Below are positions 7,079-63,348 of a stretch of 64,000 nt of DNA, one piece after another; the first letter of the stretch is position 1, and every line of letters begins with the position of its first letter. The notes below the pieces were generated by a model, which saw only the letters and a program-made list of their open reading frames with translations, did not search any database and was not told the origin of the DNA. The stretch is from Patescibacteria group bacterium (GTDB lineage: Bacteria; Patescibacteriota; Microgenomatia; UBA1406): positions 232,339 through 296,338 of the forward strand of contig JBAYJK010000002.1 of NCBI GenBank assembly GCA_041665145.1, written 5' to 3'. The translations under genes and the position numbers were made by a program.

Positions 7079-7188
7079 ATGAATTCAGTATACACAAAAT
7101 TAAGTTACAAGTTAAAAGCCTAAAGTTCTAAGTAATGTGATGCATATAGACCGTGGTATTTGTTTTTTCCGCATGTCATATTCAATAC

Positions 7189-7803: not shown

Positions 7804-7806
7804 ACT

Positions 7807-8589: not shown

Positions 8590-8591
8590 GA

Positions 8592-28221: not shown

Positions 28222-28225
28222 TTCG

Positions 28226-41506: not shown

Positions 41507-42812
41507 GAGCAACAGCAAAAGCCCCTTCTTTCATGTTTATTTTGAGGGTTTTTGATTTGTTCCATACCGCCTCAAACGCCAGTTGGAGTTGTCTTTCGAG
41601 CTTATCATTCACTTCTTTCTCGCTCCACCAATAACCGGCAAGACCCTGCACCCATTCAAAGTATGAAACAGTCACTCCCCCGCTGTTTGCCAGAATATCG
41701 GGGACGACAATAATTCCCATTTTATCGAGAATCGGATATGCGTCTTCTGCAATAGGACCGTTTGCCATTTCGATAATAATTTTCGCTTTGATTTTTCCGG
41801 CGTTTTCAGCAGTTATGACGTTCTCAAGCGCGGCAGGCACCAATATGTCTACCGGAAGTTCCAAAAGTTCTTCCTGACTAACTGTCCTCCCGTATTTGAT
41901 GTCGCAGACGGTGCCCTTGCAATAACACCCGGCAACACTTCCTTTTTTCTTTTTACAATCAAGTGTTGAGGCAACGCTCAGACCTTCTTTAACATAGACA
42001 CCTCCCTTGGAGTCAGATACGGCAACTACGGAAAAACCTTCTTCTTCGGCAATTTTGGCAAAATAGTAGCCGACATTACCGAATCCCTGGACCGCAATCG
42101 ATGGCGATTGCGGAATCTCGAATCTCGAATCTCGAATCTCGAAATTTCCTTTTTTTTGGGATTTTGTATTTGTTTCGGATTTCGGATTTCGGATTTCGGA
42201 TTTTAACTTTGAAAGTAACGCTTTCAAGACCATTACGCCGCCGCGTCCGGTTGCTTCGGTTCTTCCCAAGGATCCACCAAGCGCCACCGGCTTACCGGTG
42301 AATGTAGCGGGACTTTTTGCTCCCACGGCTTTTTCGTATTCATCGAGCATCCACAGCATTATCTGACCGTTGGTATTTACATCCGGTGCCGGGACATCCG
42401 TCCACGGTCCTATATATGAAGCGATTGCCCGTCCATAGGTGCGGGACAGAGATTCCAATTCTTCAACCGTCAATTCTTTGGGGTCAACAATAATCCCGCC
42501 TTTAGCACCTCCATAGGGCAATCCAGCAACTGCGCATTTTAAGCTCATGAGTGTGGAAAGCGCCATCACCTCTTCACGGCTTACATTCTGATGAAATCGA
42601 ATTCCACCTTTGTACGGTCCGAGCGTATTGCTATGTTGGCTTCGAAATCCTTGAAACGTTTTGATTGTGCCGTTTTTCATCTTAACGGGAAGCTTTACCT
42701 CAATAACCCGGTCAGGCTGCACGAGTTTTTCGGTAAGATCTTCCGCAAGACCGATTTTTTTGGCAGTTTTTCTAATAAGACCCTGAGCCGTTTCAAGCAT
42801 TTGATTGGACAT
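41481..42812 (-). CDS. gdh: glutamate dehydrogenase with ~27-aa in-frame insertion
   Basis: Catalytic region PYGGAKGGIIVDP and the Rossmann motif QGFGNVG. The insertion KSEIRNPKSETNTKSQKKGNFEIRDSRFEIPQS lies immediately N-terminal to QGFGNVG. Confidence 0.93.
   Translation of the reverse strand: MSNQMLETAQGLIRKTAKKIGLAEDLTEKLVQPDRVIEVKLPVKMKNGTIKTFQGFRSQHSNTLGPYKGGIRFHQNVSREEVMALSTLMSLKCAVAGLPYGGAKGGIIVDPKELTVEELESLSRTYGRAIASYIGPWTDVPAPDVNTNGQIMLWMLDEYEKAVGAKSPATFTGKPVALGGSLGRTEATGRGGVMVLKALLSKLKSEIRNPKSETNTKSQKKGNFEIRDSRFEIPQSPSIAVQGFGNVGYYFAKIAEEEGFSVVAVSDSKGGVYVKEGLSVASTLDCKKKKGSVAGCYCKGTVCDIKYGRTVSQEELLELPVDILVPAALENVITAENAGKIKAKIIIEMANGPIAEDAYPILDKMGIIVVPDILANSGGVTVSYFEWVQGLAGYWWSEKEVNDKLERQLQLAFEAVWNKSKTLKINMKEGAFAVALTRIAGLQ
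42113..42210 (-). repeat. ~98-nt imperfect-palindromic element inserted in frame in gdh
   Basis: 4x GAATCTC (42113-42140), a 32-nt spacer, then 4x TTTCGGA (42173-42200) and ttttaacttt. It is homologous along its whole length to 43251-43352 in trxB. Confidence 0.85.
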
Positions 42813-42836
42813 AAACTAAATTAAACTACTAATAAT

Positions 42837-42960
42837 AAGTTGTAACTTGTAAGTTGCAAGTTGTATTAAAGTCGTAATGATTAAGTTGTAAGTTTTAACC
42901 AGTCGTTTCAACTTACAACTTCAAGCTTTATTACAACTTACACCTTACGACTTTCAACTT
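42837..42960. repeat. ~124-nt intercistronic palindromic repeat, copy A (trxB-gdh spacer)
   Basis: Words AAGTTGTAA/TTACAACTT form two imperfect arms. It is about 93% identical (9 differences by eye) to 43997-44119. Its last 23 nt supply the trxB C-terminal codons EVESRKV and the stop. Confidence 0.85.
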
Positions 42961-43990
42961 CATCTAAATATTTCTCAATTTCTAATTCTGCTGCAACTCC
43001 CATTCCTGCAGCTGTCGCTGCTTGCCGGTAGACATGATCAACGCAGTCTCCTGCAGCAAATATTCCATCTACCGAGGTCGCATACTGAAACTTTTTGTCA
43101 AATTTTTCCCGTGATACACCCTCCGGTAATTCAAATGCAACCCTGGCGCCTGTATATATGTATTGCTTCGGATCAAGAAGCACACCCGAGCCCTCAAGAA
43201 ATTTAGTTGCCGGCGTATGACCAATAGCCACAAATACTCCGTCCAAGGGTAAATCTCGAAGCTCGAAGCTCGAATTTCGAAGTTGTTTTAGATCTTCGGA
43301 TTTTAGTGCTTGTTTCGGATTTCGGTTTTCGGATTTCGGAATTTTTAACTTTATTCCCGTTACTTTCTCTTCTCCGACTATTTCCAAAACCTCAGCGTTA
43401 AGAATAACTTCTATCTTCGGATGTTTTAATACTCTCTCCTGCATAATTTTTGATGCCCGAAAACTGTCCCTTCGATGAATTACATAGACTTTTGTCGCAA
43501 AACGTGTGAGTACCAATGCATCCTCCATGGCGGAATCGCCACCACCCAGAACCGCGACCACTTTATTTCTGAAGAAAAATCCATCGCACGTCGCACATGC
43601 CGAGACTCCTTTGCCTCGAAGTTTCTGCTCGGACGGTAACCCGAGCCATCGGGCATCTGCACCTGTCGCAACCAAAATAACCCGTGCAGAATACATCGTA
43701 CCACTGCTTACTATAACATTTTTGGCTCTTTTGTCTGACTCAATCTTTTGTACAGAATCGGAAATAAACCGCGTTCCAAATCGCTCTGCCTGTAATTTCA
43801 TTTCCTGGACAAGCTCAGGTCCAAGTATCCCTTTCGAGAAACCCGGATAGTTTTCTACATCTGAAGTAAGTGTTAATTGCCCTCCAGGAACAGAGCCTTC
43901 AATAACTAACGGTTTTAAATTTGCGCGGGCTGCATATGTTGCTGCCGCAAGTCCTGCCGGTCCTCCGCCGATGATGATAAGGTTTTCCAT
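42938..43990 (-). CDS. trxB: thioredoxin-disulfide reductase with ~22-aa in-frame insertion
   Basis: GGGPAG FAD motif, redox-active CATC, the GGGDSA NADPH motif and GVFVAIGHTP. The insertion PKSENRNPKQALKSEDLKQLRNSSFE lies between VTGIKLK and LPLDGVFVAIGH. Confidence 0.95.
   Translation of the reverse strand: MENLIIIGGGPAGLAAATYAARANLKPLVIEGSVPGGQLTLTSDVENYPGFSKGILGPELVQEMKLQAERFGTRFISDSVQKIESDKRAKNVIVSSGTMYSARVILVATGADARWLGLPSEQKLRGKGVSACATCDGFFFRNKVVAVLGGGDSAMEDALVLTRFATKVYVIHRRDSFRASKIMQERVLKHPKIEVILNAEVLEIVGEEKVTGIKLKIPKSENRNPKQALKSEDLKQLRNSSFELRDLPLDGVFVAIGHTPATKFLEGSGVLLDPKQYIYTGARVAFELPEGVSREKFDKKFQYATSVDGIFAAGDCVDHVYRQAATAAGMGVAAELEIEKYLDEVESRKV
43251..43352 (-). repeat. ~100-nt imperfect-palindromic element inserted in frame in trxB
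   Basis: aatctcgaagctcgaagctcgaatttcgaag … TTTCGGA/TTTCGGT/TTTCGGA/TTTCGGA (43313-43340) … tttttaacttt. It has the same orientation and the same end sequences as the gdh element. Confidence 0.85.
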
Positions 43991-43996
43991 GCTTTA

Positions 43997-44119
43997 AAGT
44001 TATAACTTGTAAGTCGTAAGTTGTATTAAAGTCGTAATAATTAAGTTGTAGTTTTAATCAGCTGTTTCAACTTACAACTTCAAACTTTATTACAACTTAC
44101 ACCTTACGACTTTCAACTT
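43997..44119. repeat. ~123-nt intercistronic palindromic repeat, copy B (csoR-like-trxB spacer)
   Basis: Direct repeat of 42837-42960. It starts 7 nt after the trxB ATG position and ends at the stop of the CsoR-like gene. Confidence 0.85.
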
Positions 44120-44363
44120 ATATTCGTGATATTTCTTTTAACACTGCTTCCAATTTTTCCTTATGCTCAGGCATAAGATTACACACCTCGCCTTTTGCAA
44201 TTTCAAGTCCTAAATTATTGACCGCCGCTTTTATGGCACCTATCTGGAGCAATACAGCAGTACAATCACGCTTGCCTTCAAGCATTTTTTGAATACCTTT
44301 TAACTGTCCGATGATCTTATTTATCCGTTGAATATGTATAGTGCTCTCATTTAAATCTTTCAT
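44118..44363 (-). CDS. CsoR/RcnR/FrmR-family (DUF156) metal- or thiol-responsive repressor
   Basis: 81 aa with the family pattern IQRINKIIGQLKGIQKMLEGKRDCTAVLLQIGAIKAAV. There are only two Cys (C34, C61) and no His at the usual Cu(I) ligand spacing. Confidence 0.75.
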   Translation of the reverse strand: MKDLNESTIHIQRINKIIGQLKGIQKMLEGKRDCTAVLLQIGAIKAAVNNLGLEIAKGEVCNLMPEHKEKLEAVLKEISRI

Positions 44364-46266: not shown

Positions 46267-46839
46267 CTATTTGTCCTCTAAGCTTAGAGTTCTCCGTATT
46301 TCATAGAGTGCTATTCCCGTGGATACAACCACATTGAGGGATTTGTTGATACCGTACATCGGAAGTTCGACAACAATGTCCGCAAGCTCTATCACCTCTT
46401 GCTTGACACCAAAGGTTTCATTGCCGGATATCAATGCGATATTTTGTTGTACGGGCAAGGCATGCCTTGCCCCTACGTTCCCCATTCTCATCCCTAATTC
46501 ATCAATTGAAATCGATTTCTCGTTCTGTTCCAGCACAATAATCGTATAACCTTCGACTTTCAGACTTTTGACAAGTGCCAGAATGTCTTGTTTGTATTCC
46601 CACGGAATATAGTTCACCAGCCCGACCGAGGCACGGACTATTTTCGGATCAGGCGGTACGGGAGTTTGTCCGCAATGATAGACTTTGGTCACCCCCGCCG
46701 CATCGGAAACCCGATACATACCACCCACATTGAATGTGTCGTACACATCGTCAAGAATGAGTATAAAATTACCGTTTTCTTTTGGAGTGCTCGGACTTTT
46801 TTGTATGTCCCCTTTTCTGAGAGATCGTGCAAACGCCAT
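46267..46839 (-). CDS. SpoU/TrmH-family RNA 2'-O-methyltransferase carrying an in-frame REP hairpin
   Basis: Motifs LILDDVYDTFNVGGMYRVSDAAGV and LISGNETFGV…ELPMYGINKSLNVVVSTGIALYE. The insertion reads MGNVGARHALPVQQN. Confidence 0.88.
   Translation of the reverse strand: MAFARSLRKGDIQKSPSTPKENGNFILILDDVYDTFNVGGMYRVSDAAGVTKVYHCGQTPVPPDPKIVRASVGLVNYIPWEYKQDILALVKSLKVEGYTIIVLEQNEKSISIDELGMRMGNVGARHALPVQQNIALISGNETFGVKQEVIELADIVVELPMYGINKSLNVVVSTGIALYEIRRTLSLEDK
46449..46476 (-). repeat. REP-like hairpin R4 inside the SpoU methyltransferase gene
   Basis: GTAC-GGGCAAGGCATGCCTTGCCC-CTAC, with a perfect 20-nt palindrome at 46453-46472. The minus strand reads GTAGGGGCAAGGCATGCCTTGCCCGTAC and encodes VGARHALPV. 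Confidence 0.8.
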
Positions 46840-47401: not shown

Positions 47402-50400
47402 TCACGACTGGTTCTTCGAATCATCCATCTTCATTTCCTGCACCGGGAGCTCTGCTGTTACCGCCGGTTCTTTAGCTGTCGCCGGCAATTCTACATACTC
47501 GATTGCTTTTTCTTCAAGCATTTTCTTGAGTTCTTCCTCTTTCAAGAGGGCTTCACTTACTTCCTGAGCAGCTGCAAGCTTGGCTTTCAAGTACATGGCA
47601 ATGTCCTGAATAGTCATATCGGTCAACATAAAGAACGGAATAATATCGGAGACGGCAGTAAGTCCTTGCGCTTTAATTTCTTCGTTTGCTGACACGAGCT
47701 TGTTCAAGACGTTGGTGAGTATTACCGCATCCCGTTGTACCCAGACAATGCGAGAAGTTATTTCTTTGGTAAATGGTACTTCTCCATTTGTATAGTGTTC
47801 TATCCACATGCGTTTGAGCTCTTCATATTCGTCAATACCCATAGTTTTGGGTGTCGCGATCATTTTTCCAGAATCAAGTATTTTTGACCTCAAATTCACT
47901 CCCTTATCGAGCGGTTTCTTTCCGCGATCGGCCAGCGCAGCCGGTCGAAGTGCTTGTTGCACGAGCTGTTGTGTTTCCTTAACAGTTGTTTTCTCATTAG
48001 TTTTCTCTGTAAGCTTCTCCAGCATTCTTTCAACAGTTTCTTTAGTGGTTTCTGTTGCTTTTACGAGCGTTGAGATTACGTTTGCCGGCTGCTGTGTTGT
48101 GACGACCTGTGGAATTTTTTGTATAACCGCCTGTATAACATCCGCTTTCATTCCCGATGCTTGTGCAATGCTTTCCACAGCCACCTGGTCCACGGCAACG
48201 GCGGCAAGAGCCGATTGTAATGTTTGCACCAGTCCTTCGGGCTTCTGGTGCGTTTCTGCAGCTATGGACTGCAAGGTGGTTACCCCCGCCGCTTCGGTGA
48301 GCGTTGAATTTACTTTTTCAATTACATCCTTCACTATATCTGTTGTTGTGTTTTGAGATGTCGCAATACCGGTAAGAACTTCTTTGGAAAGTGCGCTTTC
48401 CGTTATTTTTTTAACAACTTGGGTAACCGTTTCTTTTTCTATATTGGTCTTCTCGGAAAGCACAGTCAGCATGTCTCGGGGTGTTGTTGTCGCACTGACC
48501 TCTGATAATGTCGTAAGAATACGTGCAACATCCGGTGTCGAGACATGTGTGATCTCAGACACTCTGGACAACAGTTGTTGATCGTTAGAGACACCCGTTG
48601 TCCATAGGTCCAGAATTTTTTGCACGTTGGAAACGGTAGATTTGGTTTCGGTTGAAACTGCGTCTGTCGTATTCATCAGCGACAATTCCTGATGAGATAA
48701 CTGTTGGATTTTTTCCTGGACAGCCTCGGTTGACTTATTGACCAATTGCTTATATTCCTGTGCAGACTGAGTGTTGGATTGCTCAGCCTTAACGATTGTT
48801 GTTTGTGCGCGGGCAATATCTGAAAGCTTTTGAATTTGGATATCCATGCGTTTCAAAATACTTTCGAATTCCTGCCTGTTGATGCCTTGATTTATAACAA
48901 CGGTTTTTGCTGACATGCCTGCAAATGACGAAACGTCAGCGGGCGAAGTAACTTCGCCCCTACTTGTGTTTTCATTGAATTGCGATTCTTGACTCGCGAC
49001 TCGCGACTCGCGACTCTTGGTCTGGACGTCTTCGATTTCCTGTTCGAGTTGCATTGTTTGCTCTTTAACCCCCTCGGCTTGCTGTTCTACATCCACAAAC
49101 TGTTCCTCGACTTTGTTACCCATTGCCTGCTGAACTTCTTCAACCGCCCCCATCTTGTTCTGGATTTCTTGTGCAGCAGAAACCTTCGCCTTCAAATATG
49201 CTGCGATATCCTGCATACTCATATTACCGAGCATGAAGAATGGAATAACATCGGCAACTTCTTGCAATCCTTCGGCACGAACTTCTTCGTTATCGGAAAT
49301 GAGCTTGTTAAGCGTATTGTTTAACGAGACCACATCTTTCTCAACCCAATCTTTACGCGTTTTAATTGTGTCACTGAGTGGTATCTCTCCCTTTTCATAA
49401 TGGTCGGTCCACATCTTCTTAACTTCCTCGTATTCATCTATCGACATTGTCTGTGGCCGAGCGATAAGCTCTGCGGGAGCGCTTACTTTCTGTGTAGCCG
49501 GCTTAGACAGCACTTCTTGTGCCACTTTCTTGACCTGATCGATATTGGTTTTTGTTTGCGATGCAATTCGTTCTGCTACCGCTGTTGTCTGTACATGCTC
49601 GGCAGCTTTTGTAAGAATTGTTGTTGCTTTGTCTGTAGTGATTCCTGCCGTTTGTGCTACCGATTTGATAACCTCCGACTGCTTCGACTCCTCGACCGCT
49701 TTCGGTATTGATTGCAACACTTGTGACGTTTGAGAATCCGAAACATGTGCATTATTGGCAATGTTGTTAACAACCTTCTTGTCACCTACAACGTCGTTTA
49801 CCATGGATTGCGTGATGTTTTTGACCTCGTTCTGGGATATGTTCACGTGTTGTGAAATATTCTGAATATTCGTTACCGTTTGTGCCTTATTCTGGGCAAA
49901 TTGCTGAATCGCCTGACGCACGCTTGTTGCCGTACTTGTTGTCGCATTGAGGAATTGTTGTGCATTCACATCACCCTTAACTGCCCGTTCGGACATTTCG
50001 GTCTTCAGTTTAATAAATTGAGACCGTTCTTCCTTACTTTCAGCTGCCATCGGATTGCGCATCTTTTCCATAAACTCACGCACGTATTCTTTTCGGTCTG
50101 TCTTTGTTTCAAACCGGGCAATATCCGAAAGCTTTTCGATCTGGACATCCATACGCCGAGTAATCTCGGACACATCCATTTGTTTCATATTTTGCATGTT
50201 TTCGATTGCCGATGTGGCACGCATACCTTGTGAGACTGCCTGCTCGTGCGGTATCTGCATTTTCTGTGAGAAGGATTGTTTTGGAATATTCGCAGGTCCT
50301 ATCGGTCCCGGTGTTGGTCCGTGACTCTGTTGTTCCAACATGTTTAAGAGTATGTTTTTCATGGCGTAAATACCTTCGCAACAATAATCTCTGAATATTC

Positions 50401-51502: not shown

Positions 51503-51591
51503 GTCATTGCGAGCGCAGCGAAGCAATCCAGAATAAGTACAAGAATAATTACGAGATTGCTTCGGCCGGTTCTATCGAGCCTCGCAATGAC
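51503..51591. repeat. nested inverted repeat between argS and the VirB6-like gene
   Basis: GTCATTGCGAG (51503-51513) pairs with CTCGCAATGAC (51581-51591). The inner CGAAGCAATC (51519-51528) pairs with GATTGCTTCG (51555-51564). Confidence 0.75.
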
Positions 51592-51596
51592 AATTT

Positions 51597-53399
51597 TTAC
51601 ATTCTTTCGACAGTCCGGATTCCCAAAAGATACAAGCCATTTTTGAGAACTTGTGAGACTGCTTGAGTAAGATTTATACGAAGTTCCATTTGCTCCCCAC
51701 TTAATATGGAATGTTTGTTGTAAAACGTATTAAACGTCTGGGCAAGTTCGTTTAAATATACCGCAACAAAATGAGGGTCATAACTCTTTGTCGCTGTTTC
51801 AACAACTTCAGGAAATTTGGCAAGAGCTTTAAGGATAGCGAGTTCTTCGTTGTTGTATTCGTATGCATGTGTCGCGGGTCTCGCGTCTTGGGTCTCGCGT
51901 CTTGGTTCCTTAGACTCGTGACTCGTGACTCGTGACTCAGGACTCTTTCTTAACACACTCTTACATCGTGCGTAGGTATATTGCAAATACGGACCAGAAT
52001 CTCCGCTCATTGAAACGCTTGAGGTAATATCAAATGCTAAGTATTTAAATGCACTCATTTTAAGAAACGAATACTTGACTGCTGCTAATGCGATCGCATC
52101 AACATCACTTTCTGGTAAAACTGATTTATTCTCCACAATTACCTTGGCAATTGCTTTGTGTGCTTCATCGAGAATCAACTCTGCTGTAACCACCTGACCT
52201 TTTCGTGAAGACATTTTCCCGCTTTTCAAACCGACAAACTCATATGCGTTGTGGTATTGCTTTCCCTTGAACAATTCCGGGTTCAAAAGCTCTTCAACTT
52301 TGAAGGTTACCTCGAAAAAACTTTTTTGCTCTACCGCGACGTTATGAACACACAAATCTATGTGGCCAAAGTCTTTAAACTCCATTTGTGCAAGACCAAG
52401 TTCTTTACCCTCGTACGTCGGCAGCCCTTCACTGTTAAGAAAAACCCTCGTATCGAGTTTATACGGCTCGCCGTTAAAAATAATCGCTCCCTTACTTTTG
52501 ACAAGAATTCCTTTTTTAATAGCTTCTTCGTTTTGTACTTTGGCAACTTCCAATGTTTCGCTTTCAAGATATTCCCGCTCGAAATGACTATCAAGACGAT
52601 CATAAATTTGGTGAAACTTTTCCAAACTCCACTTTACTCCGAGCTTCCACAATTCATGAACCTCTCCTTCCTTTTCCGTATATATCTTCTTGTTAACTTC
52701 GATGATTTCTTTTTTATTTTCCTCACTTTCTTCAAAGGCTTTTGCCCCCTCAACATAACATTCGGATAATAATTTGACACGTGCATCGGGCGAATCAAGA
52801 TTCGCCCCTACAACGTCCCCGTTTCGAATTTCGAATTTCGAATTTCGAATTTTCTTTTGCAACGCCCACACACATTTGGCAACATGCATTCCAACGTCAC
52901 CCTGGTAGTTCGTCCGTATGACTGTGGCTCCCGATGCCTCTAGAAGTCTGGCAATGGACACTCCTAAACAAAAATTTCTCAAATGTCCAATATGCATGAC
53001 TTTAAACGGGTTCGGATGCCCGTATTCGACCATAATTTTCTTATTCTTCAGCTCGGAATTCTGCCCATAGTTATCATTCTGAGCAAGAACCTCCTGTACA
53101 ACCTTGCTGTACGCTTCAGGCTTCAGGAAGAAATTTATGTATCCCGGCTTTGCTACCTCCACTCGAGCTACATGAAGGGTTGAACCCTTCATGCCATTAG
53201 AAAAAGATAGGTTTAGCTTGTCAACAAGAGCTGCAGCGAGTTGCATTGGATTCGTCTTGACGTGACGGGCTAAAATCATGGCAATATTCGTCGAATAATC
53301 TCCGTGAGCAACTTCAGGAGACACAAAGACCTCTATTAAAGAATGAAATTCTGCATCAACAACCTGTTTTAATAGATCAATTATCTGCTGTTTGAACAT
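51597..53399 (-). CDS. argS: arginyl-tRNA synthetase with three in-frame repeat insertions
   Basis: 600 aa with the HIGH motif as MHIGH and the KMSKS-equivalent GKMSSRKG. The N-terminal Arg_tRNA_synt_N-like region and a C-terminal DALR-like anticodon-binding region ending in M are present. Confidence 0.94.
   Translation of the reverse strand: MFKQQIIDLLKQVVDAEFHSLIEVFVSPEVAHGDYSTNIAMILARHVKTNPMQLAAALVDKLNLSFSNGMKGSTLHVARVEVAKPGYINFFLKPEAYSKVVQEVLAQNDNYGQNSELKNKKIMVEYGHPNPFKVMHIGHLRNFCLGVSIARLLEASGATVIRTNYQGDVGMHVAKCVWALQKKIRNSKFEIRNGDVVGANLDSPDARVKLLSECYVEGAKAFEESEENKKEIIEVNKKIYTEKEGEVHELWKLGVKWSLEKFHQIYDRLDSHFEREYLESETLEVAKVQNEEAIKKGILVKSKGAIIFNGEPYKLDTRVFLNSEGLPTYEGKELGLAQMEFKDFGHIDLCVHNVAVEQKSFFEVTFKVEELLNPELFKGKQYHNAYEFVGLKSGKMSSRKGQVVTAELILDEAHKAIAKVIVENKSVLPESDVDAIALAAVKYSFLKMSAFKYLAFDITSSVSMSGDSGPYLQYTYARCKSVLRKSPESRVTSHESKEPRRETQDARPATHAYEYNNEELAILKALAKFPEVVETATKSYDPHFVAVYLNELAQTFNTFYNKHSILSGEQMELRINLTQAVSQVLKNGLYLLGIRTVERM
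51877..51946 (-). repeat. tandem arrays inside argS: 14-mer x2 + heptamer x5
   Basis: GTCTCGCGTCTTGG at 51877-51890 and 51891-51904. GACTCGT x3 (51912-51932) is followed by GACTCAG and GACTCTT. The region encodes KSPESRVTSHESKEPRRETQDARP. Confidence 0.85.
52788..52811 (-). repeat. REP-like hairpin R5 inside argS
   Basis: GGGCGAATC-aa-GATTCGCCC-CTAC. The minus strand reads GTAGGGGCGAATCTTGATTCGCCC and encodes VGANLDSP. Confidence 0.8.
52822..52849 (-). repeat. heptamer array TTTCGAA x4 inside argS
   Basis: Four perfect copies, one substitution away from the TTTCGGA arrays in gdh and trxB. It encodes IRNSKFEIRN and lies 10 nt from REP R5. Confidence 0.85.
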
Positions 53400-53414: not shown

Positions 53415-53581
53415 AAAAGTCGCGAGTCACGAGTCTAAGAGTCTAAAGGTCTGAATGTCTGATTGTCTGAAAGTCTTGTAACAATAATAGCCAGGCTGCG
53501 AAGATACCAATTTTCGGCGACTTGGGGAAACTAAGGGGCCCCCACGGAGCGTAGAAAACTGGGTATCGAGCTGCCTACAAA

Positions 53582-55766: not shown

Positions 55767-57941
55767 TTATATTTTCCGGTAGTATTTTTCGAGAGATAGA
55801 CGAATAATTTTGTCCTTATTGGCATTAATTACTTTCGGCAATGGCAGCGTATTTGCGAAAAACGGGTCGGATGTGAGTCCACCTATCGACATCTTAAGAA
55901 GCGTCTGGAACTTCCCCAATGCAACAAGATCGTTGGCTGTGAATTTTCCACCAAATTCATGTTGAATAAGCTCTGCGTCACTTGCTCCAATAACAAACGT
56001 AATCATGGTACCGATGTTTCCGAATATTGCTTTTTGAATATCTTCCTCTACCTGACCGATGTACTGATTGGCGAGAACGAGATTCAAACGGTATTTACGT
56101 GCTTCCGAAAGAATTTTTATAAATGAGCCGGTCGCAAAATTCTGAAACTCGTCGACGTACAAGTAAAAATCTTTGCGCTTGTCCTTATTCATCCCCACTC
56201 GACGCATGGCGGTAAGCTGCATTTTGGTGATAAACATAGCGCCCAGTAGGGCTGTCGTGTCTTCTCCGAGTTTCCCTTGAGACAAGTTTAGAATAAGAAT
56301 CTTGCCGTTATTCATAATGTCATCAAGTGAAAACGTCGAATGCTGACTGCTGACAATATGACGAATACGGAGTGATGAAAGAAATTGACCGACTTTATTC
56401 TGGATTGGTGAGATTGCTTCGATTCGCAGTTTTTCGGTCATTTTTTCGTATTCATTATTCCAGAATTCGGCAAGGATAGTATCCTTTAACGCTATCTTTG
56501 CAACAACCTGTGCACGGAATTTCGGTTGAGACAACAAGCGGGGAATATCCGCAAACGTCCCGTCGCCGTAATAAAGCATTGTCAGAATCGTATTGCGCAG
56601 AATATATTCGAGACGTGGACCCCACGAGTCATGATACAACTTGTAAAAGACAGAAACGATGCCTGAAGCGATCACGTCCGTATGTTCTGCTGCCTCTTTA
56701 TCAAACAGATTTAAGGCAAAAGCACGTCCGTCGTCAAGTGTCGGGTCGAGATACACCACGTCCTGCATTCGACGTTTGGGAATATATTCGAGAATCATTT
56801 CCGAAAGGTCTCCGTGAGGATCGATTACCGCAACCCCTTCACCGTTTCTAATATCATTAATCGCCATATTGGCAATGAGGGTAGATTTTCCGGCACCTGT
56901 TTTCCCGATGACATACACATGTTTGGTTCTGTCCTCACGGCTCAAGCCGAAGATCGCATCATGATTATGCCATTCGGTTTTCGCAAAGAAATTGACTTCT
57001 TTCTTTTCTTCGTCGGTTTTCATCTCCTCCGCAACAGGCAAATTGTCCGGAGCTTCGGAAAGATATGTTTTACCCCAATGAATCGCTTTGATTTTTTCGA
57101 ATTTTTTATCGGGCAAATGCCACAGCGAACTTACTTCGTCAAGATTAAGCAATGTTTTCGGCTCCATGAAATAAAATTTCCGTTCGGCAATTTTGTTAAA
57201 TAAAGGCCGTTTGGTCATTCCGTTTGCTACTTGAAACTTGAAACTATTACCCTCAGATAATGTGTAAATACCGAATGATCCCGCAAGTTCTGCAAGCCGC
57301 GAGCGCGTTTCTTCTTTTTGGGAAGTAGAAAATACTAAACGTAACTGGCATTGCACGAGGGGTGCGGTTAATTTTTCCTGAATCAGTTTACTGAAGGGGT
57401 TGGCTTCTTCTTTTCCTTCGCTACCTGCAACTTTCATGGCTGAACGAAGCTTTTGTTGCTCTGCTGTTTGGCTTCCGGGTACCCGCAAAAGAAACTGAAT
57501 AAATGCTGCTTCGTTGTCTTTCAGGCGCGACAGAAACCCGAGAAGCGCCGTAAGCGGAGGCATGTCCGTAAACTGTTTATATGTCTTGAACGGATAATGA
57601 TACGTATGCACGAGTTGCAACGACGCAACTGAGCTTGTTTTTCCTTTTACGACTGCGTAGAGCGGATCTGTTTTTTCGTCGGTAACGAGTGTTTTCGGGT
57701 AATGAGACAAAACCTGGCTTACGAAATACCCTTTCAATTCTTCCGGCGGATACAAATAAAACCGGGTCTTTTGTTCGAAGTTTGCTATCTCAAAACTTAA
57801 ATACTTGTGCGGCTTCAATAAAAGAGAATCAACGAGCGACCGTTTGCCGATGTTAAGAAACGAAGAAATAAGACCCACCTGCGCACTGGGCGATATTTCT
57901 TCGGTTTTTGCAGGCCTTAATAATAGAAACGTGGAGTTCAT
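55767..57941 (-). CDS. VirD4/TraG/TrwB-like P-loop ATPase (type IV secretion coupling-protein-like), no N-terminal TM
   Basis: Walker A VIGKTGAGKST, Walker B FYLYVDEFQNFAT, and a region IDPHGDLSEMILEYIP typical of T4SS DNA-transfer ATPases. I prefer the start at MNSTFLLLRP (57941); the track start at 58097 overlaps the upstream gene. Confidence 0.65.
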   Translation of the reverse strand: MNSTFLLLRPAKTEEISPSAQVGLISSFLNIGKRSLVDSLLLKPHKYLSFEIANFEQKTRFYLYPPEELKGYFVSQVLSHYPKTLVTDEKTDPLYAVVKGKTSSVASLQLVHTYHYPFKTYKQFTDMPPLTALLGFLSRLKDNEAAFIQFLLRVPGSQTAEQQKLRSAMKVAGSEGKEEANPFSKLIQEKLTAPLVQCQLRLVFSTSQKEETRSRLAELAGSFGIYTLSEGNSFKFQVANGMTKRPLFNKIAERKFYFMEPKTLLNLDEVSSLWHLPDKKFEKIKAIHWGKTYLSEAPDNLPVAEEMKTDEEKKEVNFFAKTEWHNHDAIFGLSREDRTKHVYVIGKTGAGKSTLIANMAINDIRNGEGVAVIDPHGDLSEMILEYIPKRRMQDVVYLDPTLDDGRAFALNLFDKEAAEHTDVIASGIVSVFYKLYHDSWGPRLEYILRNTILTMLYYGDGTFADIPRLLSQPKFRAQVVAKIALKDTILAEFWNNEYEKMTEKLRIEAISPIQNKVGQFLSSLRIRHIVSSQHSTFSLDDIMNNGKILILNLSQGKLGEDTTALLGAMFITKMQLTAMRRVGMNKDKRKDFYLYVDEFQNFATGSFIKILSEARKYRLNLVLANQYIGQVEEDIQKAIFGNIGTMITFVIGASDAELIQHEFGGKFTANDLVALGKFQTLLKMSIGGLTSDPFFANTLPLPKVINANKDKIIRLSLEKYYRKI

Positions 57942-58023
57942 GCTGGAATTTATTATATACTTCTTACCAACTTTCACACAATCGAAACTATGATTGCCAA
58001 AACAGACGTGGTGCGCGGCACGT

Positions 58024-61000
58024 TTATTCCCTCTCCACTCGCCGCTTCGGAAACAGCACCACAACGAGCAACGTAACGACAACGAGCCCAAACCCAATAT
58101 ATTCCAAATACTGCGGCCAGAAGACTATAACTATATTTTGTTGACCCGTGACTCGTGCTTGCCGGCCGTAGTCTTGACGAAGGCTGGACCCGTGACTCGC
58201 GACTTTCCATCCGTTCGCCCAGTTATTGACCAAAACGTGATCAATCAGTTTCTTTCCCGATATATACGGGAAGTACGTATCGACAAATCCCGTACCCGGA
58301 ACAACATACGCATCCCAACCTTTATCGAACGCCTGGGGGATTTGTACTATTCCTCCTACGACACCAGTGATCATATACACGGAAGGCAGCGGATGATCTG
58401 TTGCTGTTACATCCGACCCCGCTACCTGCGTTTCGTTAACCACGGGGACCAAACGAATCGTCTTCAACCAGCGATATGGAATATATCCTTGATATAACCC
58501 TTGAATTTGAGTTTCAGAGATAGTCTGATCGTAAGAAACCGCGCGAGCATGAAAACCATAGCCTTCATAATCAAACGTGGTTGTCGGTGGAACAAGCAGT
58601 ACGCCCAACAATGAGTGGGAGCTGAGTTTTGAGTCAATAACATTTGTACTTTGCTGTGGGTTATCAACCACTACACGCAAAGTTAAGCCTCTTTGATAAT
58701 TTGTAACAATTGCAATAACCACCCCACTCGATTGTTTTGCCTGAGAAAAATACTGATGAAAACAGGTAGAAGCTGTTTTTGCGAGTAATGAAACTGCGGT
58801 ATCAGAGAGAATAGCAGTACTGATACCATCATCAATAAAACGTTCCGTTTCACTGCAGGGAGACTCTAATTTATAATTACCACTGTCCAGTATATTTTCA
58901 CCAATATTAATTGTGATACGAGATGCAGCACCAGGCAGTAATTCTCCCGATCGTTTTAATTCGGGATCTTTAAAAAGGTATTCGGAGGTGAAGGTAAGCA
59001 CATGCTGCCGTTTGCCTATAACTATGTTGGGAAACTTTGTCAAAGCACTCACATGTTTAGTTACTCCAAAAGGAATTGGCTCACCGTTAAAACTTATCTC
59101 ATCTATCCCCTTGGGCAATGATAAAATTACTTTGTTACGTACAAACGATTCATCCAAACGCAAACCAAAAACTTCCAATCCCGAGAATGCCGGCTCGATA
59201 GTCATCTTGTCATTTTCAACACGTACCAATGTGTCAACATACTGCTCGTAATCACTGTATTTACCGACAACCAGCGCCTGTCCCGCGTTTCGGTCTAATG
59301 TATAATCGAGTGGTACCGTTAATGTTAATGTTCCGTTTGTCAAACTACTGGTAAAATCAAGACTGTCTTGCGTCAGATTGGTGAATAAATTAGGAAACGC
59401 ATAAACGATTCCAGCACCTGCAGTATTTGCTACGTAGTCTCCAGAGTCATAATATGCCTGGTCAATATATTCATGCGTACCTGAATAACTTACTTCTTTA
59501 AGGTTATTCATAAATCCAACAGTTCTTTTTGGAGACAGCGTATACACAGTTATGTTGCCCCATTTTTCCACCTGAACAACCGGTAATGATGCGCGAATAA
59601 ATTTATCAAGCTTTAGGGATTCTTGAACCTTACTGTCAGTTTTAACCCAACCGTCAAGAACAATATGGGAAATCGCATACTTACTTATCACATTCTGCAG
59701 GAGACTGGAATCCTGCAGCTGCAGCGCATAATGAAGTTCGTTAAAATACTGTTCATTCAATTTGCTCCACGGATCGAATGGCCGTTCAAGAACCGCCTGT
59801 TTGACACCGTACCACCAAAAACCGGAACCCCTACCTCCCCATGTATAAAACATCCAGTTGCTATACGAAGGTTGCGGGAGTGTCATAATCCGACCGTCTG
59901 CCTGTTGTTTTTGAAAGAAACTGATCAGTTGAAAATACTCAGCAGGAATCGTCAGTCGTAAAGAGTCATAGAAGAAATTACCCTTGAAAATTTGCTGTTG
60001 CGCAACAAATAATACGAAGATAAAAGCAAGAATAAGCATACGGGTAAACTTAACACTCTTAATGAACGAGAGCAATCTCTCAAGCCCCAAAGATATAAAT
60101 GTACTATAACAGAAAACAAAAAGTAGAGAAAATTTCGTAAACGGGAAGCGGAATGCCTCACCAAAAAGAGGTATTTTTCCTCGCAACCACCAATTGAACT
60201 CGCCAAGCAGCGGGATTTGAGTTCCTAGCATGAAAAACGCAACAGCAATCGCGGGCACCAGATACAACTCTTTCTTTTGAATTGCACTAATAACACCAAG
60301 AAAAGCAAGCGCTGCAAATACAAAACCAACTACCATATACCAAGATGAATTGGTAATTTCACGCCACGTACTCATAATGTAATTGAACTCTCCATTTTTA
60401 TCGGATTCTGTGGTATCGAGCATAAAGCCGCGCAAATTTACCACATCAGACACCGCTCCTCTGCGGTTATTCTTCTCAAGAATCTCCTCCGACGAGAGTA
60501 GATTGATCTTCGTGGTGCGGATATTGTCTCCCTGTGTCATTGCAGCATGTGCAAACGGCAACAACCAAAAGCTATTAACCAGCACAATGACACTTCCTAC
60601 CAACAGAACGTACTTAAATTTCTTGAACGTATCTTGGAAAAGAAACGCCACACAAACGGAAATAACCCCCACCATGTACGCTATAAATACTGTCGGTACA
60701 AAACCCTGCGGAGTGAATAGTATGTTCAGTAAAGCAAGAACGAATAACCTTTTCTTTGACGGTTTATGTAAGTAATGTATGAGAATCCCTATCAGTATCG
60801 GCAAAGCGGCAAAATGTACGGAGAATACTTCGAGCGGTGCATAAAACATTTGGACAGTTGCCAAATTGAGCTGGTAAAAGAGACCTCCTACCAATCCATA
60901 TTCGCGCGGACGTTTCAACGTGTGGGTCAGGAAAAAAAACATTCCGATTCCCCCGACGAGATGCATTAAAAATTGAAAGAAATAACGGATGATCGGCAAC

Positions 61001-61278
61001 GGAAGAATTTTGACGAGAAGAAAAATAAGTAGCGTATGCATAATGTTAGCTGCGTGTGCCAAGCCATCCTCAACCCCCAGCCCTCGGTATTCCTGCCACA
61101 CGGAGTTGAGATTCATGGTAAATGCGTGAGAGGGGTTAAGTTCTGAAAAAACATTATCCCAACCGACCAAAAAAGTTCCCGGTTTATAGTTAACCGCCAC
61201 AATGACTAATTCCAATAAAACAAATATCAATAACATCCAATACGAACGTATTATTTTCTTCATTGTGTTATGCTCCAA
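58024..61278 (-). CDS. 1084-aa polytopic membrane protein with large extracytoplasmic C-domain (GT-C-like glycosyltransferase candidate)
   Basis: About 13 TM helices in the first ~480 aa with an early acidic loop (WDNVFSELNP…EYRGLGVED). A beta-rich domain and a final TM follow. The alternative start at 61263 forms an ATGA overlap with the upstream stop. Function is inferred from architecture only. Confidence 0.4.
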   Translation of the reverse strand: MEHNTMKKIIRSYWMLLIFVLLELVIVAVNYKPGTFLVGWDNVFSELNPSHAFTMNLNSVWQEYRGLGVEDGLAHAANIMHTLLIFLLVKILPLPIIRYFFQFLMHLVGGIGMFFFLTHTLKRPREYGLVGGLFYQLNLATVQMFYAPLEVFSVHFAALPILIGILIHYLHKPSKKRLFVLALLNILFTPQGFVPTVFIAYMVGVISVCVAFLFQDTFKKFKYVLLVGSVIVLVNSFWLLPFAHAAMTQGDNIRTTKINLLSSEEILEKNNRRGAVSDVVNLRGFMLDTTESDKNGEFNYIMSTWREITNSSWYMVVGFVFAALAFLGVISAIQKKELYLVPAIAVAFFMLGTQIPLLGEFNWWLRGKIPLFGEAFRFPFTKFSLLFVFCYSTFISLGLERLLSFIKSVKFTRMLILAFIFVLFVAQQQIFKGNFFYDSLRLTIPAEYFQLISFFQKQQADGRIMTLPQPSYSNWMFYTWGGRGSGFWWYGVKQAVLERPFDPWSKLNEQYFNELHYALQLQDSSLLQNVISKYAISHIVLDGWVKTDSKVQESLKLDKFIRASLPVVQVEKWGNITVYTLSPKRTVGFMNNLKEVSYSGTHEYIDQAYYDSGDYVANTAGAGIVYAFPNLFTNLTQDSLDFTSSLTNGTLTLTVPLDYTLDRNAGQALVVGKYSDYEQYVDTLVRVENDKMTIEPAFSGLEVFGLRLDESFVRNKVILSLPKGIDEISFNGEPIPFGVTKHVSALTKFPNIVIGKRQHVLTFTSEYLFKDPELKRSGELLPGAASRITINIGENILDSGNYKLESPCSETERFIDDGISTAILSDTAVSLLAKTASTCFHQYFSQAKQSSGVVIAIVTNYQRGLTLRVVVDNPQQSTNVIDSKLSSHSLLGVLLVPPTTTFDYEGYGFHARAVSYDQTISETQIQGLYQGYIPYRWLKTIRLVPVVNETQVAGSDVTATDHPLPSVYMITGVVGGIVQIPQAFDKGWDAYVVPGTGFVDTYFPYISGKKLIDHVLVNNWANGWKVASHGSSLRQDYGRQARVTGQQNIVIVFWPQYLEYIGFGLVVVTLLVVVLFPKRRVERE

Positions 61279-63341
61279 ACTTCGCGTTCAGAATCCTGGT
61301 ATTCCAATTGTAAACCGTTCATTACCGGTATTTTTTTCTTTATATCAGAAGTCGGTGTGAACGCATAAGTGACCGTAAAAAAAGACGGTTGCATCACTGA
61401 ATACATACTTGAGAAATCCAGGAAATCGCCTGCCCGAAGCGCGAGACGATATGGATATGAGTCGTGCGGGGGCGCATGCCAAATATTCTTACCGGACGGA
61501 ATTATCTCATCTGTTACAATCCATTTATCCAGAGCCATGGGATTTCCATTGAGTGAAATAGTTATGAGTGGTGAGCCATTTACATATGTGTAGTGAAGAC
61601 TCCATAAGTCTAGATATCCGTCCTGCGGAAAATACCAACGTTCAGTTAACGCACCCATGTCCCAATGATATTCAAGAAGCGACTCTGGTGGAGCAGGGTC
61701 AATTTCCGTAACATGAGGAAACAGCTCTTTATAGCGGCGGACTACATCTACGCATTCCGGCCAATTCCACCGATCGTCTTTGTGCACAACAATGGTATCT
61801 ACACCGTTCCTCGATAAATTCCCAAGCAGTTGCGAGAACCACGCTTTTGTGTCAATAATGGCAGGAGCATTACTGTAACAGGTAAACCAAACCAATTGAT
61901 TCTGGTTCAAAAACAGTTGTGCATCTGACGTGTCCCCTGACCAGTGAATATATCCACCGATAATTGGCTTTTTGTAATACGAAGGCAGTACGTCGTATCG
62001 GGGAGAAGCAATGGGAATATCCAGAACCGCTCTGCTAGGTAGTGACTGTGCAACAGAAAGAAAATCTCCTTTAAACGTATCAGAAAGTGCGTACGTGAAA
62101 GTAAGTCGTTCAAGAATCAACAAACAAAAAACCGTCGCAACCACCATTTTCCCGATGACTGAGCGATGATACAGCCTCCCCAGTACCACACTGATGCCAA
62201 GGGTGATCCCCACATAAAAAAGAATGTAATAGCGCCCGGTTTCCACAATCGCTTTAAAAGGCAACACAGATATTAACAATACGTACGGCATCGGTAAACC
62301 GGTTTCGGGGTTTCTTACTCCCAACGAGAAAAGAAAAAAGATTCCGATTAATAACACCAACGGTCTTTTAAGTCTCATGCCACGGGTTTTTATCAAAAAC
62401 CAAACAAAGAGAATGAGCTCCACAAACCCGATAAATACACCCTCTTCCACATGCTTTGCCGCACCAGACAATAAGTTCACGTACCACATTGGGAAAAGCT
62501 TATTGGGAATAAAATAGTCGCGAATCCACGGATTGTACACCCATTTCTGAGCAAAAAGAAAATCCCCCTTTATAAGCGCGACTACTTGGCTCGTAAACAA
62601 AATACAAAAAACAGTAACGATCGCGACAACAAACCAGACCAGTGCCTGACGATGCGAAAGCAATTTTTTAACCAGTTCCATCACCACCTCCCGATGTGCC
62701 GCAAAAAATACCAATCCTCCAACAATAACAGCAATCGAAAGAAGTGCGGTGTATTGCAGAGAACTCATAAACACAACAACCAGAGCAACTGCTACAAAAA
62801 AGAGGTTTCGTTTAGTTGATTGATGATAATATTGCAGGAGACAAAATAAAAGAAACGGAAAACCTCCGGTTACAATAAGGTTCGGGTGTCCAAAACCCCG
62901 CAAGAGCGAATAGAATGACAATCCATATATCATTCCACCGATAAATCCGACAAAGCGGGATTTACTGATATAGCGAAAAAGAAAATAACTTAAGAAACCG
63001 TTTAATGCCAACAGAAACAAGACTGTCAGATTGTAGGAAAGCACGATGTTTTGAAACAATCCAAATAAGAGCGCCCCCGTCAGAGTACTTAAGACACCAT
63101 CGAATCCGCGACTGAAATCAAAACCGACCGGAAAGCGCCAGAGCGCAGTATGACTAAACGGCCAATGCCCTGCGCGCATACTCTCATACGCGACATGTTG
63201 AAAACCGGCATGCTGATAGTTATCTACTCCGTCACCGATAAATTTATCCGTAAGATGCAAAACAGAGGGAAAGGTAAACAATAGTGCCAGGAAAAAAAAC
63301 AGAGCAAAAAGAATTACATAACCAATGATACGCTTACGCAT
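61260..63341 (-). CDS. ~690-aa polytopic membrane protein with extracytoplasmic C-domain (GT-C/YfhO-like candidate)
   Basis: Start at MRKRIIGYVILF (63341) rather than the track start at 63395. There are about 12 TM helices and then a soluble domain. It lies in tandem with the preceding GT2 gene and the following GT-C-like gene. Confidence 0.4.
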   Translation of the reverse strand: MRKRIIGYVILFALFFFLALLFTFPSVLHLTDKFIGDGVDNYQHAGFQHVAYESMRAGHWPFSHTALWRFPVGFDFSRGFDGVLSTLTGALLFGLFQNIVLSYNLTVLFLLALNGFLSYFLFRYISKSRFVGFIGGMIYGLSFYSLLRGFGHPNLIVTGGFPFLLFCLLQYYHQSTKRNLFFVAVALVVVFMSSLQYTALLSIAVIVGGLVFFAAHREVVMELVKKLLSHRQALVWFVVAIVTVFCILFTSQVVALIKGDFLFAQKWVYNPWIRDYFIPNKLFPMWYVNLLSGAAKHVEEGVFIGFVELILFVWFLIKTRGMRLKRPLVLLIGIFFLFSLGVRNPETGLPMPYVLLISVLPFKAIVETGRYYILFYVGITLGISVVLGRLYHRSVIGKMVVATVFCLLILERLTFTYALSDTFKGDFLSVAQSLPSRAVLDIPIASPRYDVLPSYYKKPIIGGYIHWSGDTSDAQLFLNQNQLVWFTCYSNAPAIIDTKAWFSQLLGNLSRNGVDTIVVHKDDRWNWPECVDVVRRYKELFPHVTEIDPAPPESLLEYHWDMGALTERWYFPQDGYLDLWSLHYTYVNGSPLITISLNGNPMALDKWIVTDEIIPSGKNIWHAPPHDSYPYRLALRAGDFLDFSSMYSVMQPSFFTVTYAFTPTSDIKKKIPVMNGLQLEYQDSEREVWSITQ

Positions 63342-63348
63342 ATCATCA

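Follow-up and report, generated by a model that had tools for sequence, protein, structure and literature searches.

The arginyl-tRNA synthetase gene argS of a Patescibacteria group bacterium (GTDB lineage Bacteria; Patescibacteriota; Microgenomatia; UBA1406), an ultra-small organism, was analyzed within a stretch of 64,000 nucleotides, referred to here as the window (NCBI GenBank assembly GCA_041665145.1, contig JBAYJK010000002.1, positions 232,339 to 296,338, forward strand). The gene (positions 51597-53399 of the window, minus strand) harbors four short repeat features, namely two heptamer arrays, a GTAG-tagged hairpin of the repetitive extragenic palindromic (REP) type and a perfect palindrome. 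Based on comparison with homologous genes and on the repeat content of the window, these features are probably passengers consisting of old heptamer microsatellites, a later GTAG REP associated with a RAYT transposase, and a fold-back palindrome. According to this explanation, the three most variable loops of the arginyl-tRNA synthetase (ArgRS) would have been filled by two kinds of small repeats that pervade the genome. The heptamer microsatellites would be old residents of loops 1 and 2, 4-unit or 14-mer arrays being present already in related lineages; their sequence would turn over at a fixed position through slipped-strand or hairpin-mediated misalignment, with selection letting through only those changes that keep the frame. 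The GTAG REP would represent a copy of a hairpin family tied to a resident RAYT (Y1/HUH) transposase, and would have inserted next to the loop-1 array at a later time, its GTAG guide end pointing to that array. The palindrome, 23 nt in length, would most likely have originated from a local fold-back (template-switch) duplication. No role in ArgRS is proposed for any of these elements; they would persist since the encoded peptides are hydrophilic, stop-free and located in permissive loops. The argS repeats are a local sample of the repeats pervading this genome and do not reflect a special property of argS.

Repeat features within the argS gene

argS was recognized as an intact open reading frame (ORF) of 600 amino acids (aa). 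The deduced protein contains the three ArgRS domains Arg_tRNA_synt_N, tRNA-synt_1d and DALR_1 (Pfam search), matches solved ArgRS structures end to end and retains all columns that are invariant across an alignment of 24 homologues, including the HIGH motif and the KMSKS-type loop. The original prediction, which had described three in-frame repeat insertions, was therefore correct in stating that the reading frame stays open through all of them, and argS is, as far as can be judged from its sequence, a normal, functional synthetase gene. A homologue search yielded a protein identical to the window ArgRS, originating from a Patescibacteria metagenome-assembled genome (P0001). The next relative (P0002) is 70% identical, and all others, including proteins of Roizmanbacteria and Dojkabacteria, are at most 59% identical. 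Moreover, the gene order type IV secretion system (T4SS) coupling protein, argS, giant ORF is also kept in a Roizmanbacteria contig (L246). An origin related to HIP1 or cyanobacteria, suggested by the motif GCGATCGC at position 52093, was rejected, the protein homologues belonging to Patescibacteria. Likewise, programmed frameshifting or bypassing of the arrays was dismissed as unnecessary, the frame being continuous and homologous on both sides.

The three features reported previously were recovered at their respective positions by Tandem Repeats Finder (TRF) and a repeat finder. The first one, located in loop 2, is a heptamer array of 11 units at positions 51871-51947 (minus strand; TRF and codon alignment), which encodes residues ~484-510 (...KSPESRVTSHESKEPRRETQDARPATH). 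Its units read on the sense strand AAGAGTC, CTGAGTC, three times ACGAGTC, TAAGGAA, CCAAGAC, GCGAGAC, CCAAGAC, GCGAGAC and CCGCGAC. TRF reported two parts, namely 51876-51905 as GGGTCTCGCGTCTT x2.1 (100% identity) and 51913-51938 as GACTCGT x3.7 (100%) plus two degenerate units; the heptamer phase makes 51871-51947 one array with the sense unit NNGAGWC and a degenerate unit 6. It had been assigned to the linker preceding the anticodon-binding domain, but instead lies inside the Pfam DALR domain (residues 472-600), where it follows the first DALR helices (469-484 and 487-493) in a segment that is coil up to residue 516 (Pfam and AlphaFold2 (AF2) model).

Loop 1 contains the GTAG-tagged REP hairpin at positions 52788-52811 (minus strand; repeat finder), reading GTAG-GGGCGAATC-tt-GATTCGCCC on the sense strand and encoding VGANLDSP. 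On the forward strand, GGGCGAATC-aa-GATTCGCCC spans positions 52788-52807 and pairs perfectly over 9 bp around a 2-nt loop; the adjoining bases 52808-52811 read CTAC. In the predicted RNA fold of the region, no helix is stronger than the one formed by this hairpin. As had been proposed, a heptamer array is its direct neighbor: at a distance of only 10 nt, positions 52822-52852 (minus strand) comprise (TTTCGAA)x4.4 at 100% identity (TRF; sense unit AAATTCG), encoding IRNSKFEIRN. The TTTCGAA unit is stop-free on both strands. Furthermore, a fourth feature, missing from the original prediction, was detected in a loop of the N-terminal domain, where positions 53171-53193 (minus strand) form the perfect 23-nt palindrome CATGAAGGGTT-g-AACCCTTCATG, encoding NGMKGSTLH. 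This site is extended by 6 aa relative to P0002. Neither terminal inverted repeats nor target-site duplications were found around any of the four features.

The occurrence of such repeats is not a chance match, since period-7 arrays, perfect hairpins and the motif GTAGGGGC all exceed expectation in the window. Exact period-7 arrays of at least three units were observed six times, versus none in shuffled sequences, and counts for all other periods from 5 to 15 were close to zero. Tolerating mismatches, 16 period-7 arrays versus 0-2 for neighboring periods were counted. Eight perfect hairpins with stems of 9 bp or more are present in 64 kb, versus 2.2 expected, and GTAGGGGC occurs six times versus 0.58 expected.

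Further repeats were observed on both sides of the gene. Directly upstream of argS, positions 53418-53476 (plus strand) constitute an intergenic, degenerate array of period 7-8 (GCGAGTC ACGAGTC TAAGAGTC TAAAGGTC ...), which shares its unit family with the loop-2 array, but with the unit ACGAGTC reading on the opposite DNA strand. Directly 3' of the argS stop codon, a nested inverted repeat (51503-51591; outer arms GTCATTGCGAG/CTCGCAATGAC, inner arms CGAAGCAATC/GATTGCTTCG) is present as a single copy in the window. It folds as an 89-nt hairpin (dG -37 kcal/mol, z = -4.3) and could represent a terminator or an element resembling MITEs (miniature inverted-repeat transposable elements).

Short tandem repeats are error-prone in short-read assemblies, so that an assembly or sequencing artefact had to be considered. 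Two 21.8-kb assemblies (ENA MEGAHIT and JGI/NCBI), which may share reads, are identical except for one single-nucleotide polymorphism outside argS and have equal array copy numbers; out-of-frame argS alleles were not seen in the comparison of the two. Against an artefact stand the identical sequence obtained by two pipelines, the frame kept through four separate features, the length of the arrays (at most 77 nt, i.e., shorter than a read), and the presence of similar in-frame arrays, flanked on either side by Pfam domains, in many unrelated contigs. This explanation is hardly credible.

Variable loops of ArgRS and the order of events

In order to place the repeats on the protein, loop lengths were determined in 116 ArgRS homologues. 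The N-terminal loop of P0001 is the longest of all (30 aa versus a median of 23), whereas its loop 1 (32 aa versus 20) ranks second and its loop 2 (40 aa versus 26) ties for second. The loop-1 extension is missing from 101 of the 116 proteins. The segments are therefore lineage-specific, the loops of P0001 being length outliers, and the alignment that had been suggested as a check identified none of the repeat segments as conserved ArgRS sequence. The term 'insertions' used in the original prediction holds with regard to this lineage specificity, but not for loop 1 in the strict sense: this loop is only 5 to 6 aa longer than in the nearest relatives, and the codon alignment places its array over ancestral codons. 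A model of three clean insertions was accordingly rejected for loop 1.

An AF2 model of ArgRS built on the alignment reached a mean pLDDT of 87.4. Values below 50 were obtained only for residues 492-499 and 501-511, both inside the peptide encoded by the loop-2 array. Block values were also lower at the palindrome site (79 and 71) and in loop 1 (70-82), and the KMSKS-type loop is weakly modeled as well (block 391-400, pLDDT 50). Other lineages carry different inserts in these loops. P0011 features heptamers in loop 2 and the peptide PHFAEATRGK in loop 1, and P0089 contains a tandem peptide repeat in one of the loops. The same argS loops thus appear to have been colonised repeatedly and to act as permissive hot spots. 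As a separate observation, the P0011 locus (L004, a lineage of the Candidate Phyla Radiation (CPR), GC content 36%) carries heptamer arrays of its own, both in argS and upstream of it (L004:6414-6536, 6971-6998 and 8329-8362), and its PHFAEATRGK peptide is encoded by an imperfect hairpin insert.

The order of events in loop 1 was deduced from codon-level alignments. Two Roizmanbacteria-like orthologues, P0010 (56% identical) and P0006 (57% identical), possess four-unit arrays reading TAAGAAT TCAGAAT TAAGAAT TGAGAAT and TAAGAAT TCAGAAT TAATAGT TGAGAAT, respectively, which match the TCGAAAT x4 array of P0001 in codon position and phase, and both are without a hairpin. Consequently, the loop-1 array predates the REP. 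The hairpin is missing from the orthologues P0002, P0006, P0010 and P0008, and the REP is a later arrival specific to P0001. Loop lengths agree with this order: the 27-aa class of loop 1 is longer than the common 20-aa class by precisely 7 aa, the equivalent of three units, and P0001 has another 5 aa at the position of the REP's GTAG arm. The suggestion that arrays arise at, or are seeded by, sites of hairpin insertion does not hold for argS loop 1, where the REP-less P0006 and P0010 already have the array. Based on these alignments, the loop-1 array is old, with its position and four-unit length kept and its units homogenised differently in each lineage. Loop 2 follows this pattern as well, with arrays of different units at one and the same place, namely (TTTAGAATTAAAAA)x2.4 in P0010, a degenerate nnnnGTC array in P0002 and TTCCCGT-type units in P0011.

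Conservation of the loop-1 array position and of its four-unit length across lineages sharing ~57% identity could also point to an adaptive function as flexible charged linkers, phase-variation loci or hairpins regulating argS at the mRNA level, and the mRNA region of the argS repeats indeed folds moderately better than shuffled sequences (z = -2.2). However, unit sequences and peptides vary by lineage, and most homologues manage without the loop-1 extension. Moreover, on/off switching by frameshift would be lethal in a presumably single-copy essential gene, copy numbers are equal in the two assemblies, and the same repeats occur in unrelated proteins. An adaptive function is considered highly improbable.

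GTAG hairpins, the RAYT gene and heptamer arrays beyond argS

Every occurrence of GTAGGGGC in the window heads a perfect hairpin with a stem of 8-10 bp, and GTAG directly abuts the stem in all six cases. Loops comprise 0-6 nt, and 1-3 nt in the copies of argS, leuS and the 1357-aa ORF, which have a total length of ~23-24 nt. The six hairpins reside in leuS, a SpoU-type methylase gene, the 1357-aa ORF, argS and the RAYT gene (two copies), so that none shows the extragenic location characteristic of REPs. Stems differ among the copies, which share only GTAGGGGC and GCCC. Six copies per 64 kb represent a significant excess, the window covering 13% of the 480-kb contig and the stems being different; classical REPs number more than 100 per genome. 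The label 'GTAG-type REP' given to the argS hairpin gains weight from its GTAG tag, 9-bp perfect stem and 2-nt loop, the five sibling GTAGGGGC hairpins and the RAYT-like gene. Identification of the argS hairpin as a real REP is thus supported, with the caveats that the copies found here are all intragenic and differ in their stems.

Among the siblings, the leuS copy (2377-2399, minus strand; GGGCGAGG-caa-CCTCGCCC-CTAC) encodes RGEVASP and adds 5 aa (RGEVA) compared to the Thermus thermophilus LeuRS. A further 35-aa segment of the leuS product (gene at 1477-4107; aa 461-495, ~2620-2727) is not present in T. thermophilus LeuRS either and overlaps a 12-13-nt repeat at 2666-2692. The SpoU-type methylase gene carries GGGCAAGGCATGCCTTGCCC-CTAC at 46453-46476 (minus strand). 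In the 1357-aa ORF, the hairpin at 48941-48963 (minus strand) is accompanied by a GACTCGC x3.7 array at 48991-49016, so that the region 48941-49016 is arranged like argS loop 1, with the array on the GTAG side.

A RAYT-like Y1 (HUH) transposase gene was identified at positions 33510-34163 (plus strand) based on Pfam PF01797, NCBIfam NF047646 and sequence motifs. With PF01797, the ORF reaches 28.4 bits, exceeding the cut-off of 23. NF047646 (REP_Tyr_transpos, REP-associated tyrosine transposase) yields 59 bits (E 4e-16), short of its equivalog cut-off of 80 because inserts split the match. An HUH motif (NHIHMI) and a Tyr motif (RNYYEHIIR) are present in the translation. Two in-frame GTAG hairpins (33618-33643 and 33879-33904) lie inside the gene, together with three tandem copies of a 24-nt repeat derived from the 3' arm of the first hairpin (33628-33697). 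A search of PDB sequences with the RAYT protein returned nothing meaningful. Contigs were also scanned for the pattern GGGCGAA..TTCGCCCCTAC, resulting in at least 120 loci from many phyla. This breadth was not accepted as evidence, a rough chance estimate for 18 bases in 596 Gb being ~150 matches; only multi-copy loci and matches inside RAYT genes are informative. RAYT homologues were found in four of the loci fetched by the hairpin pattern (L014, L123, L098 and L071), and in L014 and L071, which were checked closely, the same hairpin type lies within the RAYT gene. A literature search found no paper on RAYT or REP in Patescibacteria. These sequence data indicate that this little-studied group possesses a REP/RAYT system.

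The association between hairpins and arrays was evaluated in the window and in ~1.5 Mb of fetched loci, which together contain 255 GTAG-tagged perfect hairpins. Only eight of these (~3%) have an array within 40 nt, and it lies on the GTAG side in all eight (binomial p = 0.008), with ~1.4 expected per side according to a rough chance estimate. The close cases include Chloroflexi, cyanobacterial and Zoogloeaceae loci, and in a ninth case (L179) the REP likewise faces its array. Conversely, a GTAG hairpin within 100 nt was found for one of 125 (TTTCGRA)x4 arrays among the metagenome matches listed. The low frequency in both directions, together with unrelated inserts of other lineages at exactly the same argS loops (P0011, P0089 and P0094), favors a pure coincidence of permissive sites, in which REP, arrays and palindrome would be mechanistically unrelated and few positions tolerate extra residues. 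In the window, a period-7 array is located no farther than 25 nt from four of the eight perfect hairpins, a proximity that speaks against coincidence, as does the uniform polarity of the eight close cases, other phyla included; however, the closeness within the window could merely reflect shared permissive loops. Coincidence is, on balance, unlikely. The most economical reading would be that REPs occasionally integrate beside existing arrays, their GTAG guide end facing the array, in a manner resembling the insertion of IS200/IS605 elements 3' of a target recognised by a guide sequence (PMC8266576). The idea that array units provide the CT/CA dinucleotide cleaved by RAYT was dropped, the units being inconsistent in this respect.

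Heptamer arrays are widespread in the window. TRF detected ~30 period-7 arrays with many different units, which cover 14.7% of intergenic DNA versus 0.85% of coding DNA, and several intergenic regions are made largely of them. All multi-copy arrays well inside genes are stop-free on the sense strand, whereas one or both strands are interrupted by stop codons in 14 of 15 arrays in intergenic regions or at gene edges. Since 7 is not divisible by 3, three units correspond to seven codons, and arrays of at least three units encode one identical 7-residue cycle in every frame (e.g., FEIRNSK, SEIRNPK and TSHESRV), the sole requirement being an overall length divisible by three.

Multi-copy arrays were found in three more genes, encoding glutamate dehydrogenase (GDH), thioredoxin reductase (TrxB) and the 1357-aa protein; those for GDH and TrxB are neighbors. 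The GDH insert (42092-42203, minus strand; ~27 aa net) consists of the hairpin CCGCAATCG-atgg-CGATTGCGG, GAATCTC x4.4, a spacer and TTTCGGA x4.4, and immediately precedes the GXGXXG strand; the conserved residues 'SIAV' directly ahead of GXGXXG are encoded by one arm of the adjoining hairpin. The TrxB insert (43255-43340, minus strand; ~21 aa net) consists of CTCGAAG x4, a spacer and TTTCGGA x4. Both inserts are homologous over ~100 nt including spacer and flank, the common module comprising four nCTCGAA units, a ~30-nt spacer, four TTTCGGA units and the flank TTTTAACTTT. Compared to solved structures, TrxB has a second insert of ~19 aa (aa ~277-295, ~43105-43160) with no obvious repeat. In addition, two near-identical intergenic elements of ~100 nt are located upstream of GDH (42835-42937) and TrxB (44013-44120), both built of inverted heptamer arrays, (TAAGTTG)n ... 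(CAACTTA)n.

A scan of metagenomes detected (TTTCGRA)x4 in at least 120 contigs with GC contents of 0.34-0.69. Among the matches listed, the unit number is exactly four in 116 of 121 arrays, mostly with TT(T) behind the last unit. Their frequency in long open frames (83/121) is similar to that of random positions (274/360). In-frame arrays with Pfam domains on both sides were observed in LeuRS (two arrays), CarB, PNPase, GatA, DNA polymerase I (PolA), LigA, an ATP-dependent DNA ligase and an aminotransferase, all of them from unrelated organisms. Example loci are L183:294-3320, L189:973-4242, L180:72-2291, L132:355-1797, L212:3122-6052 and L219:1-1347. In LigA the array represents a clean insert of 10 aa, and the GatA array takes the place of a loop of comparable length. 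A full-text literature search found no paper mentioning SEIRNPK, FRISDFG or TTTCGGATTTCGGA. A second length mode (30-34 nt) of perfect period-7 arrays, seen in array-selected loci, was not relied on because it does not appear in hairpin-selected loci and may reflect ascertainment bias from inverted partner arrays.

These results bear on a composite mobile module, according to which hairpin-plus-array units or ~30-nt arrays would be mobile or copied as a whole and inserted into argS, for which RAYT-mediated strand transfer or microhomology-mediated template switching could be the route. The GDH/TrxB homology extending through spacer and flank, the wide recurrence of (TTTCGRA)x4 with its fixed length, its in-frame presence in many housekeeping genes and the clean LigA gap fit such a module. 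Against it, the argS loop-1 array is in phase with its orthologues and lies over ancestral codons, the GatA array substitutes for an existing loop, the argS loop-2 units differ, and no target-site duplications or terminal repeats were seen. A mobile module is therefore regarded as an unlikely source of the argS features. A still broader proposal, that arrays of about four heptamers (~30 nt), such as (TTTCGRA)x4, form an undescribed, cross-phylum class of in-frame micro-insertions in housekeeping genes, made or copied by a fixed-length process instead of slippage of single units and used as preferred landing sites of GTAG REPs, is put forward as speculation that will probably not hold; if true, heptamer arrays would be natural target structures of RAYT transposases.

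Several observations weigh against the passenger explanation based on microsatellites and a later REP. Slippage by a single unit shifts the frame in an essential gene, so that steps of three units or paired compensation are needed. Furthermore, the AT-rich TTTCGRA x4 array is also found in unrelated genomes with GC contents as high as 69%, its copy numbers falling off steeply between four and five, and the GDH and TrxB inserts are homologous as modules including their spacer; this recurrence and homology favor copying or mobility over independent local slippage. Simple local slippage explains poorly the AT-rich unit in high-GC genomes, the drop from four to five copies and the module-level homology. 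Moreover, stems vary among the six REPs, in contrast to a REP family that is young and homogeneous, and the RAYT, which is interrupted by inserts and scores below the equivalog cut-off (59 versus 80), may be inactive. The passenger explanation nevertheless remains the preferred one, with slippage as the likely generator of the arrays, RAYT as the presumed mobiliser of the REP, and neutrality of the inserts and a fold-back origin of the palindrome as probable components.

Other repeats and genes of the window were recorded as well. Near the 3' end of ORF 4440-5474, a 30-nt perfect palindrome (4484-4513) and a hairpin with an 11-bp stem (4530-4557) are both composed of 9-nt repeats (CTCATAAGA). 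A perfect period-8 array (CCTATATT x4.1) is located at 11921-11953 near the 5' end of ORF 11877-12905, whose true start codon may lie downstream of the array. Two giant ORFs, 4282 aa and 1747 aa long, are located in the region 15373-33469. For the first, nothing but a weak N-terminal match to Phage_int_SAM was obtained, a domain also matched by ORF 14692-15189 just upstream, and the second contains six LamG-type domains. Finally, ComEA-/ComEC-like competence genes as well as a gene for a T4SS coupling protein, the latter with large unannotated neighbors, are located in the regions 7153-9410 and 55767-63395.

Relation to known repeat systems and biological significance

GTAG-tagged REPs and their RAYT (TnpAREP) transposases were described previously (Nunvar 2010, PMC2817692; Di Nocera 2013, PMC3733652; Corneloup 2021, PMC8266576). 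REP palindromes have a stem of 6-13 bp and a short loop, and intragenic in-frame GTAG REPs in known proteins were catalogued as a minority class (PMC3733652). GTAG guides the choice of the RAYT cleavage site, as studied biochemically for group-3 REPs, of which the Stenotrophomonas maltophilia representative comprises 23 nt with an 8-bp perfect stem and a 3-nt loop (PMC8266576). The copies in argS, leuS and the 1357-aa ORF match this architecture. In general, the hairpins of the window resemble GTAG REPs in that GTAG abuts a perfect, GC-rich stem of 8-10 bp, loops do not exceed 6 nt, the whole element measures 23-26 nt, several copies occur per genome region and a Y1/HUH transposase gene is associated. 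They differ in that all six copies lie inside ORFs, two of them inside the RAYT gene instead of flanking it, in that the stems vary, and in that the host is a Patescibacterium.

According to Rehm 2015 (PMC4692102), the bacterial excess of heptamer simple sequence repeats (SSRs), known since 2007, had received no detailed study; a polymerase-slippage hypothesis for it is found in the same paper, which treats heptanucleotide SSRs and the short tandemly repeated repetitive sequences (STRRs) of cyanobacteria with reference to Mrazek 2007 and Mazel 1990. Positions 52822-52852 and 51913-51938 of argS both comprise at least three head-to-tail 7-nt units, as is the case for such SSRs. Varied 7-nt tandem units, over-representation of period 7, a strongly intergenic distribution and inverted array pairs that could form hairpins are shared with these systems. 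In contrast, the arrays described here also occur in frame inside essential or housekeeping genes, an array at one argS loop persists in phase across divergent lineages, and the units are AT-rich and do not form G-quadruplexes.

A comparable pairing of hairpins and arrays is said to exist in Nostoc, where Elhai et al. 2008 reportedly described small dispersed hairpin repeats (SDR) of 21-27 nt in or next to heptamer arrays, sometimes within genes. Phylum and hairpin sequences differ from the present case, and the GTAG polarity and the RAYT link are observations made here. MITEs are elements of 50-500 bp with terminal inverted repeats and a target-site duplication, neither of which accompanies the argS features. 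SSR contingency loci, known from Haemophilus and Neisseria, switch non-essential surface genes by frameshift; the arrays likewise are short tandem repeats in ORFs that presumably mutate by slippage, but their hosts are essential or housekeeping genes in which only in-frame states are viable, so that they do not constitute such loci. RPE-1 elements, a type of Rickettsia palindromic element (RPE), measure ~100-150 bp, whereas the elements found here comprise 23-31 nt, or up to 77 nt for the microsatellites, and are thus not of the RPE-1 type. RPEs (Ogata 2000), which appear as 'longer palindromic insertions' in PMC3733652, likewise represent selfish palindromic DNA inserted in frame into coding sequences, including housekeeping genes, and tolerated on protein surfaces.

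Intragenic REPs and heptamer microsatellites as such are already known. New are the Patescibacteria host, the persistence of an array in phase within an essential gene, the polar arrangement of REP and array, and the recurrence of one type of array across phyla. The essential synthetase of a genome-reduced Patescibacterium gathers selfish and presumably slippage-derived DNA in its variable loops. Intragenic arrays serve as a natural filter, since only in-frame states survive, and they reveal how heptamers change, i.e., by which step size, by concerted evolution of units and under avoidance of stop codons. Furthermore, the polar link between REP and array and the cross-phylum occurrence of (TTTCGRA)x4 provide testable hypotheses on the target choice of REPs. 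The inserts lengthen loops and create low-complexity peptides, and can thereby mislead annotation, alignment and structure prediction of CPR proteins.

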